Source: Escherichia coli (GTDB lineage Bacteria; Pseudomonadota; Gammaproteobacteria; Enterobacterales; Enterobacteriaceae). Taken from it: a DNA stretch of 64,000 bases. The stretch lies in assembly GCF_003334385.1 (NCBI RefSeq), contig NZ_QOWN01000002.1; one strand, 5' to 3'. The notes below the pieces were generated by a model. It did no database searches, had not been told where the DNA came from, and saw only the letters and a list, made by a program, of their open reading frames with translations. Below, in pieces: positions 20,026-30,198 of the stretch (position 1 is the first letter of the stretch; every line of letters starts with the position of its first letter). Made by a program: the position numbers and the translations under genes.

Positions 20026-20313
20026 TCAATTTTCGAGGCGATAACCGGCCATAAAAAAGCGCAACGTAGAACAGGAATTATTCTCACGAAAGAAATCCAT
20101 TACCATCTCTTTATCCAGTCCATAGCGGCGCGTCAGAATCCCCGCTTCCCAGGCGCTAAGCTGGCGATCTCCGGTCTTTTCGTACATCCGGTGTGAGTAG
20201 CCTAATACAAAACCGCGTTTATAATCGGCACAGAATTTTGTCACATTAACCGCACTGTCGGCATGCGTTGCTTTTAATCCCGCCATTAAGCCTTTACCAA
20301 AATGGTTATTCAT
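20026..20313 (-). CDS. yghW: DUF-family small protein YghW
   Basis: 95-aa ORF at the K-12 yghW position. Confidence 0.7.
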
Positions 20314-20431
20314 CGTTCACCTCATTCGCTATATATTGTCATATATAGCGATATTTTAGGCAAAGAACGACTTTTGCGCACGCTATTTTTTCATGCTTGT
20401 TTAAGACGTAATCCCGTAAGAGATAAACCTA

Positions 20432-21316
20432 TCAGGAGAGATATTTATCGAACCATTTCAGTGTCCTTTGCCAGGCAAGATCGGCGGCAGATTTGTCATA
20501 ACGGGGCGTGGAATCATTATGGAATCCGTGATTAACCCCCGGATAGATATACGCCTCATAAACCTTATTATTGGCTTTCAACGCCGCCTCGTAAGCAGGC
20601 CAGCCCTCGTTGATTCGGGTGTCCAGTTCCGCGAAGTGGAGTAGTAAAGGCGCTTCAATCTTCGCCACATCGGCAGTGGGTGCCTGACGACCATAAAACG
20701 GCACCGCGCAGGCCAGTTCCGGATACGCGACAGCCGCCGCGTTCGATACGCCACCGCCATAGCAAAATCCGGTAATACCCACTTTGCCTGTCGCTTGCGG
20801 ATAGCGTTGCATAAACTCAATTGCGGCAAAGAAATCATTCATCAGTTTGTTGGATCAACCTGCTGTTGCAGCTCACGACCTTTATCATCATTTCCCGGAT
20901 AACCTCCAACGGAACTTAAGCCGTCAGGTGCCAGGGCGATATACCCCGCCTTCGCCACTCGCCGTGCCACATCTTCGATATACGGATTCAGTCCACGATT
21001 CTCATGCACCACCACTACGGCTGGCGTTTTGCCGCTCATCTTTGCGGGCTTCACCAGATAACCCCGCACCTCGCCGTGACCATTTGGCGAAGGATACGTG
21101 ATGTACTCAGCAACAATTTCCGGGTCGGTAAACTCTACCTGAGTCGCCAGCGCATAATTTGGCTTGAGCAAATCAAACAACGCTAATGCCGTCATCCCGC
21201 CTACCGCACTTCGCCGCAAGGTTGAGGAACTCACGTTTCGAGATTTTCCCGTGAGCGTAATAGTCATAGTAATCCAGCAACTCTTGTGGGAAATCTTTGG
21301 CGGTTAAACGCGGCAT
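20432..21316 (-). pseudogene. yghX: Dienelactone hydrolase-family gene yghX, disrupted by two frameshifts
   Basis: One protein is split across three minus-strand frames: 21316..21173 ([36 protein letters not shown]), 21267..20842 (...[24 protein letters not shown]...) and 20842..20432 (...GFCYGGGVSNAAAVAYPE...GVNHGFHND). Confidence 0.7.
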
Positions 21317-21472
21317 CGTTGCACTCCTCAGTTGGTGTTTTTTTAAGCAAAGCATAAGCACGTGTTTTTGCCCAGTTTTTCGTCACTCTGTGAGCCAGAC
21401 TACGGGATACGCGCTGGCGAATCGCTAAACTAGAAACATTGTTTCGAAATTGAACGGTGGAAAGGAGAGGTC

Positions 21473-22513
21473 ATGGTCTGGTTAGCGAATCCCGAACGTT
21501 ACGGGCAGATGCAATACCGCTATTGCGGAAAAAGTGGTTTACGCCTGCCCGCGTTATCGCTCGGTTTATGGCACAATTTCGGTCACGTTAACGCGTTGGA
21601 ATCACAGCGTGCGATCCTGCGTAAAGCGTTTGATTTGGGCATTACGCACTTTGATTTAGCCAACAATTACGGGCCGCCTCCAGGAAGCGCAGAAGAGAAC
21701 TTTGGTCGCCTGCTGCGGGAGGATTTTGCCGCTTATCGCGATGAACTGATTATCTCTACCAAGGCTGGCTACGATATGTGGCCCGGCCCTTACGGCTCTG
21801 GCGGTTCACGTAAATACCTGCTCGCCAGCCTCGACCAAAGCCTGAAGCGTATGGGGCTTGAGTATGTCGATATCTTTTACTCTCATCGCGTCGATGAAAA
21901 TACGCCGATGGAAGAAACCGCCTCTGCGCTGGCTCATGCGGTACAAAGCGGTAAGGCGCTGTATGTCGGGATCTCCTCTTACTCGCCAGAGCGGACGCAA
22001 AAAATGGTCGAGTTGCTGCGCGAGTGGAAAATTCCGCTGTTAATTCATCAACCTTCGTACAATTTACTGAACCGCTGGGTGGATAAAAGCGGCCTGCTGG
22101 ATACCCTGCAAAATAACGGCGTGGGCTGTATTGCCTTTACTCCTCTGGCTCAGGGATTGCTGACCGGAAAATATCTCAACGGCATTCCGCAAGATTCACG
22201 GATGCATCGTGAAGGGAATAAAGTTCGTGGTCTGACACCGAAAATGCTTACCGAAGCCAACCTCAACAGCCTGCGCTTATTGAATGAAATGGCACAGCAG
22301 CGTGGACAATCAATGGCGCAAATGGCGTTAAGCTGGTTGCTGAAAGATGATCGCGTGACGTCGGTATTGATTGGTGCCAGCCGCGCGGAGCAACTAGAGG
22401 AGAACGTGCAGGCGCTGAATAATCTGACATTTAGCACCAAGGAGCTGGCGCAGATTGATCAGCATATCGCCGATGGCGAGCTGAATCTGTGGCAGGCGTC
22501 TTCCGATAAATGA
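21473..22513 (+). CDS. yghZ: Aldo-keto reductase (L-glyceraldehyde 3-phosphate reductase) YghZ
   Basis: 346 aa, AKR family, MVWLANPERYGQMQYRYCGKSGLRLPALSLGLW. Confidence 0.9.
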   Translation: MVWLANPERYGQMQYRYCGKSGLRLPALSLGLWHNFGHVNALESQRAILRKAFDLGITHFDLANNYGPPPGSAEENFGRLLREDFAAYRDELIISTKAGYDMWPGPYGSGGSRKYLLASLDQSLKRMGLEYVDIFYSHRVDENTPMEETASALAHAVQSGKALYVGISSYSPERTQKMVELLREWKIPLLIHQPSYNLLNRWVDKSGLLDTLQNNGVGCIAFTPLAQGLLTGKYLNGIPQDSRMHREGNKVRGLTPKMLTEANLNSLRLLNEMAQQRGQSMAQMALSWLLKDDRVTSVLIGASRAEQLEENVQALNNLTFSTKELAQIDQHIADGELNLWQASSDK

Positions 22514-24189: not shown

Positions 24190-24390
24190 ACGCCTTATCC
24201 GCCTACAAACGCATGAAGATTCAACATGTTGCAATAGATTTTGTAGGCCTGATAAGCGTAGCGCATCAGGCATTGAGCACCTAATGCCGGATGCGTCGTG
24301 AACGCCTTATCCGGCCTACAAACGCACGAAGATTCAACATGTTGCAATAGATTTTGTAGGCCTGATGAGCGTAGCGCATCAGGCAATTCT
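24190..24390. repeat. Tandemly duplicated REP/BIME cluster
   Basis: Two near-identical ~110-bp units (cgccttatccgcctacaaacgcatgaagattcaacatgttgcaatagattttgtaggcctgataagcgtagcgcatcaggca and its copy), each with REP palindromes. Confidence 0.6.
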
Positions 24391-30094: not shown

Positions 30095-30198
30095 GCTTTT
30101 TACGCCTCAAACTTTCGTTTTCGGGCATTTCGTCCAGACTTAAGTTCACAACACCTCACCGGAGCCTGCTCCGGTGAGTTCATATAAAGGAGGAACGT

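Follow-up and report, generated by a model that had tools for sequence, protein, structure and literature searches.

A yghX dienelactone hydrolase pseudogene with two frameshift deletions shared by descent with Escherichia coli K-12

Results

One hydrolase coding sequence is interrupted twice at the yghX locus

We analyzed a 64,000-nucleotide stretch of Escherichia coli DNA (contig NZ_QOWN01000002.1 of RefSeq assembly GCF_003334385.1), referred to here as the window. A dienelactone hydrolase gene of the yghX family lies on its minus strand at 20432 to 21316 and is broken by two frameshifts. These 885 nt begin at the ancestral ATG and end at the ancestral TGA, as delimited from translations, alignment with the intact alleles of strains HH97 and BL21, the NF041440 profile, and Pfam; intact E. 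coli alleles comprise 888 nt (295 codons). The gene is flanked by yghW (20026 to 20313) on one side and by the divergently transcribed gpr (yghZ; 21473 to 22513) on the other, and the region sits just upstream of the hyb hydrogenase-2 operon. A consensus scan of 20300 to 21500 returned no promoter or terminator above shuffled expectation and none on the yghX strand, and an Rfam scan of the whole window placed no RNA family within or beside yghX.

Three consecutive open reading frames (ORFs) cover the gene: 21173 to 21361 (containing the ATG at 21316), 20842 to 21267, and 20432 to 20842. The longest in-frame pieces measure 47, 141, and 136 codons, respectively, and no uninterrupted frame spans the whole domain. 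Against the 292-position NF041440 profile, the middle ORF (20845 to 21267) matched positions 34 to 155 (E = 2 × 10−69; 234 bits) and the C-terminal ORF (20435 to 20842) matched positions 158 to 292 (E = 5 × 10−78; 262 bits), so that the two matches are colinear and abutting. Residues 1 to 36 of the N-terminal ORF were identical to the intact YghX protein. This arrangement is far beyond chance: one hydrolase coding sequence has been interrupted twice.

A preliminary description of this DNA had read the hydrolase as one continuous sequence spread over three minus-strand frames. The single sequence and the strand were upheld, but translations placed it in two frames rather than three. Translation of 20432 to 21316 in a single frame yields both the N terminus (MPRLTAKDF...LNLAAK) and the C-terminal 138 residues (KLMNDFF...KYLS, then stop), and the middle segment alone sits in the +1 frame. 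The outer segments share a frame because the deletions total 2 + 1 = 3 bases (885 versus 888 nt). The middle segment (20850 to 21207, minus strand; ancestral codons 38 to 157, profile positions 34 to 155) holds the first half of the alpha/beta-hydrolase fold together with Glu106. The C-terminal segment (20432 to 20848, minus strand; ancestral codons 158 to 295 plus stop, profile positions 158 to 292) contains the 136-codon ORF (20432 to 20842) and the entire catalytic triad.

Intact YghX is a conserved, probably exported hydrolase

Comparison with orthologues, which the preliminary description had proposed, recovered intact forms in other E. coli lineages (295 aa) and in Citrobacter koseri, Pseudescherichia, Enterobacter, Kosakonia, Leclercia, and others (292 to 299 aa; 85 to 92% identity). 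In examples such as WP_001137768.1 of HH97 and WP_001424373.1 of BL21(DE3), the gene occupies 888 nt in a single frame; the window copy has all of the catalytic codons, yet it is unable to yield the 295-aa protein. Differences among the intact alleles of HH97, BL21, O157:H7 PA20, and EC958 were mostly synonymous (pairwise dN/dS of 0.035 to 0.13), and intact yghX is under strong purifying selection. The reconstructed or intact allele scored 587 bits against NF041440 over positions 1 to 292, whereas each large window ORF alone scored below the 460-bit cutoff. The window locus is a member of the YghX family by descent, and no single ORF in it qualifies.

Residues 84 to 294 of intact YghX matched the Pfam dienelactone hydrolase family (DLH; PF01738; E = 3 × 10−48), and residues 59 to 294 are covered at near identity by PDB entry 4ZV9 ("uncharacterized protein"), a 2.0-Å structure from E. 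coli O157:H7 Sakai (PMC8533429). ClcD of Pseudomonas knackmussii (PDB 1din and 4u2c) belongs to the same fold family, and alignment with 4u2c placed Cys186, Asp233, and His264 of YghX on Cys/Ser123, Asp171, and His202, and Glu106 on Glu36. Cys186, the nucleophile, lies in the context GFCYGG (G-x-C-x-G). ClcD is nevertheless distant (phmmer E of about 4 × 10−15): its 236-aa chain aligns only with YghX residues 70 to 289 and is without the N-terminal signal region of about 58 residues. Across 22 relatives, with identities as low as 36%, the triad and Glu106 showed little or no variation. In the window, the minus-strand codons for Cys186 (20762 to 20764), Asp233 (20621 to 20623), and His264 (20528 to 20530) all lie downstream of the second lesion; that for Glu106 (21001 to 21003) lies in the middle segment. 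The ancestral product was a 295-aa alpha/beta hydrolase of the dienelactone hydrolase fold with a cysteine nucleophile, the triad Cys186-Asp233-His264, and Glu106.

The literature on 4ZV9 that we found consists of uses as a structural template and one negative phosphotriesterase assay, in which purified EcoDLH had no detectable activity (bioRxiv 10.1101/2025.10.30.685675). YghX has also been put forward as a cPHB polymerase candidate from its GxCxG motif (PMC3709699); this is a motif-based proposal only, and we did not adopt it.

The N-terminal 58 residues of YghX comprise a long n-region, the motif SKREFL, a mildly hydrophobic core, and an ALA motif. In ortholog alignments, SKREFL (S26-K27-R28-E29-F30-L31; 21224 to 21241, minus strand) appears as a KR variant of the twin-arginine (Tat) motif, with K27, R28, and F30 invariant in enterobacterial orthologues; in these columns, most of the distant relatives have RRxF(L/I/M). 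The signal h-region and ALA cleavage motif follow at 21145 to 21207 (minus strand), and the ALA motif directly precedes the first residue of the crystallized 4ZV9 construct (start residue 57 to 59). These features suggest that ancestral YghX was probably periplasmic, exported by a Tat-type signal of about 58 residues; since the E. coli signal carries KR rather than RR, Tat export is put forward as a prediction.

The n-region itself (21209 to 21316, minus strand; alignment columns 11 to 45) was invariant across enterobacterial genera and recognizable (LYDxYxH…RRxF) in relatives of only 36 to 50% identity. Such conservation is unusually strong for a signal peptide and suggests an extra role, for example, in chaperone or proofreading binding.

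Two small deletions break the reading frame

We placed the lesions by aligning the window with the intact 888-nt alleles of HH97 and BL21(DE3). The first is a 2-bp deletion (dTA) at the junction 21209|21208 (minus strand; alignment columns 109 and 110), which removed TA or AT from codon 37 (TAT, Tyr37). It changes AAG-TAT-GCG to AAG-T-GCG and moves downstream reading into the +1 frame. It falls within the signal peptide, with the KR motif on one side and the hydrophobic core on the other. The second is a 1-bp deletion (dC) at 20849 (minus strand; alignment column 470), where a single C replaces the CC of intact alleles in codon 157 (ACC, Thr157); CCAACCAAA becomes CCAACAAA (CCA-ACC-AAA to CCA-AC-AAA). 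This lesion brings reading back to its initial frame, and in the middle frame it produces a TGA at 20842 to 20844.

The frame switches had previously been put near 21170 to 21270 and at 20842. The first range brackets the 2-bp deletion, and the second position is inexact: 20842 marks a TGATG stop/start overlap seven bases downstream of the actual lesion at C20849. Homopolymer runs of 3 or more bases are absent from both junctions (lesion 1 lies in GTATG, and lesion 2 changes CC to C), which makes moot an earlier proposal to verify homopolymer runs at both.

Once both deletions are set aside, a single base separates the window from the HH97 allele, its nearest intact relative: a G-to-A change at 21202 (minus strand) that converts GTG to GTA and is synonymous in the ancestral frame (Val39). 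Since the intact O157:H7 allele carries the same A, this change is a standing polymorphism.

The window allele is identical to the K-12 pseudogene

The window sequence matched that of K-12 MG1655, and also that of K-12 DHB4, at 885 of 885 nt. MG1655 has the same two lesions and the same gene order (hybO-yghW-yghX-gpr-yqhA); the window differs from it by three substitutions in the surrounding 4 kb, namely at 20140 (yghW Gly58, synonymous), 21596 (gpr Leu42, synonymous), and 21364 (intergenic). The window therefore comes from a K-12-like strain other than MG1655. Five other genomes compared lacked the changes at 20140 and 21596.

The locus is annotated as inactive in both conventions that we encountered, which differ in style. 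MG1655 (NC_000913.3) has a curated pseudogene, yghX b4658, of 836 nt, whose start is the internal ATG at window position 21267 and which overlaps a separate protein-coding gene, yqhI b4755 (window 21173 to 21316). In all carriers that we inspected (K-12 DHB4 and non-K-12 strains; five independent genomes), the RefSeq pipeline PGAP labels the whole 885 nt "YghX family hydrolase, frameshifted." The literature on "b4658" yielded nothing relevant. Together with the lesions relative to intact alleles, these annotations bear out the original identification of a yghX dienelactone hydrolase pseudogene, and the sequence identity confirms the statement, made in the same description, that yghX is also frameshifted in K-12. 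The K-12 lesions were absent from HH97, BL21, O157:H7, EC958, and the other genera. The window yghX is a frameshift pseudogene shared by descent with K-12; it was already known and annotated and is a case of recent, lineage-specific decay.

The deletions are inherited, and the 2-bp deletion probably came first

The frequency of each junction was determined with probes of 50 to 52 nt centered on it, searched by megablast with a junction-spanning 28-nt seed against 5,426 complete E. coli genomes. The dTA junction was present in 1,505 genomes (27.7%) and the dC junction in 1,199 (22.1%); the intact TA and CC junctions were present in 3,786 and 4,222 genomes, respectively. Most of the yghX locus was missing in only 10 of the 5,426. 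As the same lesions recur in 1,199 to 1,505 independent genomes, they are inherited and not sequencing errors, which agrees with the earlier suggestion that the decay is ancestral.

These counts bear directly on the possibility, raised in the preliminary description, that yghX is really intact and both indels are sequencing or assembly artifacts. Single-base indels are the commonest assembly error; against this, MG1655, K-12 DHB4, and more than 1,100 further complete genomes, each sequenced independently, share the two lesions, the junctions contain no homopolymer of 3 or more bases, and C-terminal tagging has detected the 47-aa product that ends at the frameshift-made stop (PMC6001520; PMC11429745). 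On the junction sequences and population counts, we rejected sequencing error and homopolymer slippage, to which we assign a negligible probability.

The counts also fit a nesting of dC within dTA: 3,921 non-dTA genomes plus about 306 with dTA only give 4,227, and the observed figure was 4,222, with 5 unassigned. Consistent with this nesting, which rests on count arithmetic and sampled genomes, strain CUVET20-PYO1 (NZ_CP115390.1, 1585 to 2470) carries an intermediate allele of 886 nt with the 2-bp deletion only, and both variant dC alleles sampled (ARB349 and EcN_Sk) also carry dTA. Because the counts fit this nesting, the order was probably the 2-bp deletion followed by the 1-bp deletion. In such a sequence of events, one E. 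coli lineage, K-12 included, would first have lost the frame within the signal peptide through the deletion in codon 37, and the deletion in codon 157 would then have struck an already-dead gene.

Decay continues in relatives. In STK78-E (NZ_CP162185.1, 1458 to 2155), an IS1 element is inserted inside the yghX pseudogene. In EcN_Sk (NZ_CP172017.1), gene positions 352 to 447 form a recombinant patch of about 100 bp with 19 substitutions on the double-lesion background, nearly matching the B2-type allele of EC958.

Genomes with the 2-bp deletion only (about 300) offer a different view of the first lesion. In these, the internal ATG (equivalent to window position 21267) opens a 278-aa frame, which places a new N terminus with a basic n-region including an RR pair ahead of the original hydrophobic core and cleavage site. 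On 161 contigs in GenBank, the 278-aa ORF is entered as an ordinary "dienelactone hydrolase family protein"; PGAP in its current form labels the locus frameshifted. It is conceivable that the first lesion remodeled yghX rather than killing it, so that dTA-only genomes would make an exported, active hydrolase, and that YqhI was separately kept as a peptide induced by low Mg2+. We consider this unlikely. Most of the dTA clade then took the 1-bp deletion, which argues that constraint had already been lost before the second hit. Even if such remodeling took place, the double-lesion copy in the window would still be no working hydrolase gene.

The translated small protein YqhI is the 5' stump of yghX

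The N-terminal stump ORF (21173 to 21316, minus strand; 47 codons plus stop) corresponds to K-12 yqhI (b4755), as identified from the ORF itself, the MG1655 annotation, and the published small protein (PMC6001520). Its 47-aa product is identical to YqhI in that study and to UniProt YQHI_ECOLI, and the yqhI start, which is the native yghX ATG, is well placed, with a Shine-Dalgarno-like GAGGAG upstream. Codons 1 to 36 are ancestral YghX (the signal n-region and KR motif), and codons 37 to 47 are out-of-frame read-through. The Pfam family PF23678 ("YqhI-like") matched intact YghX at residues 1 to 36 (E = 8 × 10−20), and all YghX orthologues carry PF23678 together with DLH. Because of these two matches, we identify YqhI as the signal-peptide stump of YghX plus 11 read-through residues. 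Translation from the native start now stops after 47 codons and gives the YqhI peptide.

That the stump is translated is known from the literature. YqhI is listed among the small proteins in a study that used chromosomal 3' epitope tagging with immunoblot confirmation (PMC6001520). Another study describes it as previously validated by genomic epitope tagging and reports ribosome footprints and induction under low Mg2+; there, deletion of yqhI cut the growth yield in low Mg2+, and plasmid-borne YqhI did not complement the deletion (PMC11429745). Neither paper shows that it draws the link between YqhI and YghX: PMC6001520 does not use the word "pseudogene," and the papers that contain "yghX" did not include PMC11429745.

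Programmed frameshifting and residual function account poorly for the locus

The preliminary description had called the gene a pseudogene unless sequencing errors or programmed frameshifting were involved. Like the first of these exceptions, the second is effectively excluded, by the population counts, the lack of a motif, and the lack of conservation. Restoring the full-length hydrolase would take two shifts, +1 near codon 37 and −1 near codon 157, and some features invite this reading: the N- and C-terminal pieces share a frame, so that two opposite shifts rebuild a 294-aa protein, lesion 1 is followed by the rare codons AGG-CGG, and lesion 2 is followed by a TGA stop. However, the gene is read in a plain frame in at least 3,786 of the 5,426 E. 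coli genomes and in every orthologue seen in other genera, and neither junction has an X XXY YYZ heptamer or a prfB-like CUU-UGA-C preceded by a Shine-Dalgarno motif. Both shifts would have to be efficient and to occur independently, while the tagged 47-aa YqhI indicates that ribosomes reach the frame 1 stop. The IS1 insertion is tolerated (in one strain), and the locus serves as a neutral integration site. With shift sites that are neither conserved nor motif bearing, we rejected programmed frameshifting as extremely improbable.

Some function might instead persist without recoding, either because the 141-aa and 136-aa fragments, each made separately, come together as an active hydrolase or because YqhI gained a function of its own. 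The middle ORF, the historical "ORF_f141" of MG1655 (20842 to 21267, minus strand; 141 codons), runs from an internal out-of-frame ATG at 21267 to the lesion 2 TGA, and the 136-codon C-terminal ORF starts at its TGATG overlap with the middle ORF. This stop/start overlap, which joins the two ORFs, speaks for residual function, as do transcription of the yghX locus (PMC9746237) and the translation, low-Mg2+ induction, and deletion phenotype of yqhI (PMC11429745). Several observations weigh against it. No clear Shine-Dalgarno motif precedes ATG 21267, and the middle ORF begins out of frame inside yqhI. Glu106 and the triad are on different fragments, and the export h-region is on one fragment only. 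Residues 37 to 47 of YqhI are frameshift read-through without homologues, and plasmid-borne YqhI failed to complement the yqhI deletion (PMC11429745). Finally, in W3110-derived production strains yghX is a routine site of integration, chosen as a dispensable "pseudogene" (PMC7677707), and we found no reported effect of yghX disruption in the literature on such strains. We found no evidence in support of a useful product from either fragment, and we regard residual function as very unlikely.

Discussion

The window yghX is almost certainly inactivated and encodes no hydrolase, through lesions of the lineage shared with K-12 in which dC probably arose on a dTA background. The catalytic domain is left split between two frames, without an adequate start of its own, and the loss of enzyme function is probably complete. 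Two points count against the reading of a dead gene: the TGATG overlap could allow some coupled translation, and the locus is still transcribed (it is differentially expressed; PMC9746237), with its 5' stump translated. We found no evidence that contradicts the pseudogene reading.

As an instance of recent, lineage-specific gene decay in phylogroup-A-like strains of E. coli, yghX is a textbook case and of little wider biological weight. It has practical consequences nonetheless. Studies of YghX function need a non-K-12 allele, for example, from BL21, O157:H7, or B2 strains. The identity of YqhI and PF23678 with the YghX signal region affects how phenotypes of yqhI deletions are read, and part of the K-12 "small protein" catalogue may likewise consist of translated pseudogene stumps.

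Elsewhere in the window, Rfam matches above the gathering threshold were found at 13200 to 13276 (both strands), 24246 to 24316 (minus strand), 30097 to 30160 (plus strand), and 58178 to 58326 (minus strand). They represent naRNA4/CssrE-type (REP-derived) elements, the ES173 sRNA, and an FMN riboswitch, presumably the ribB leader, and are unrelated to yghX.
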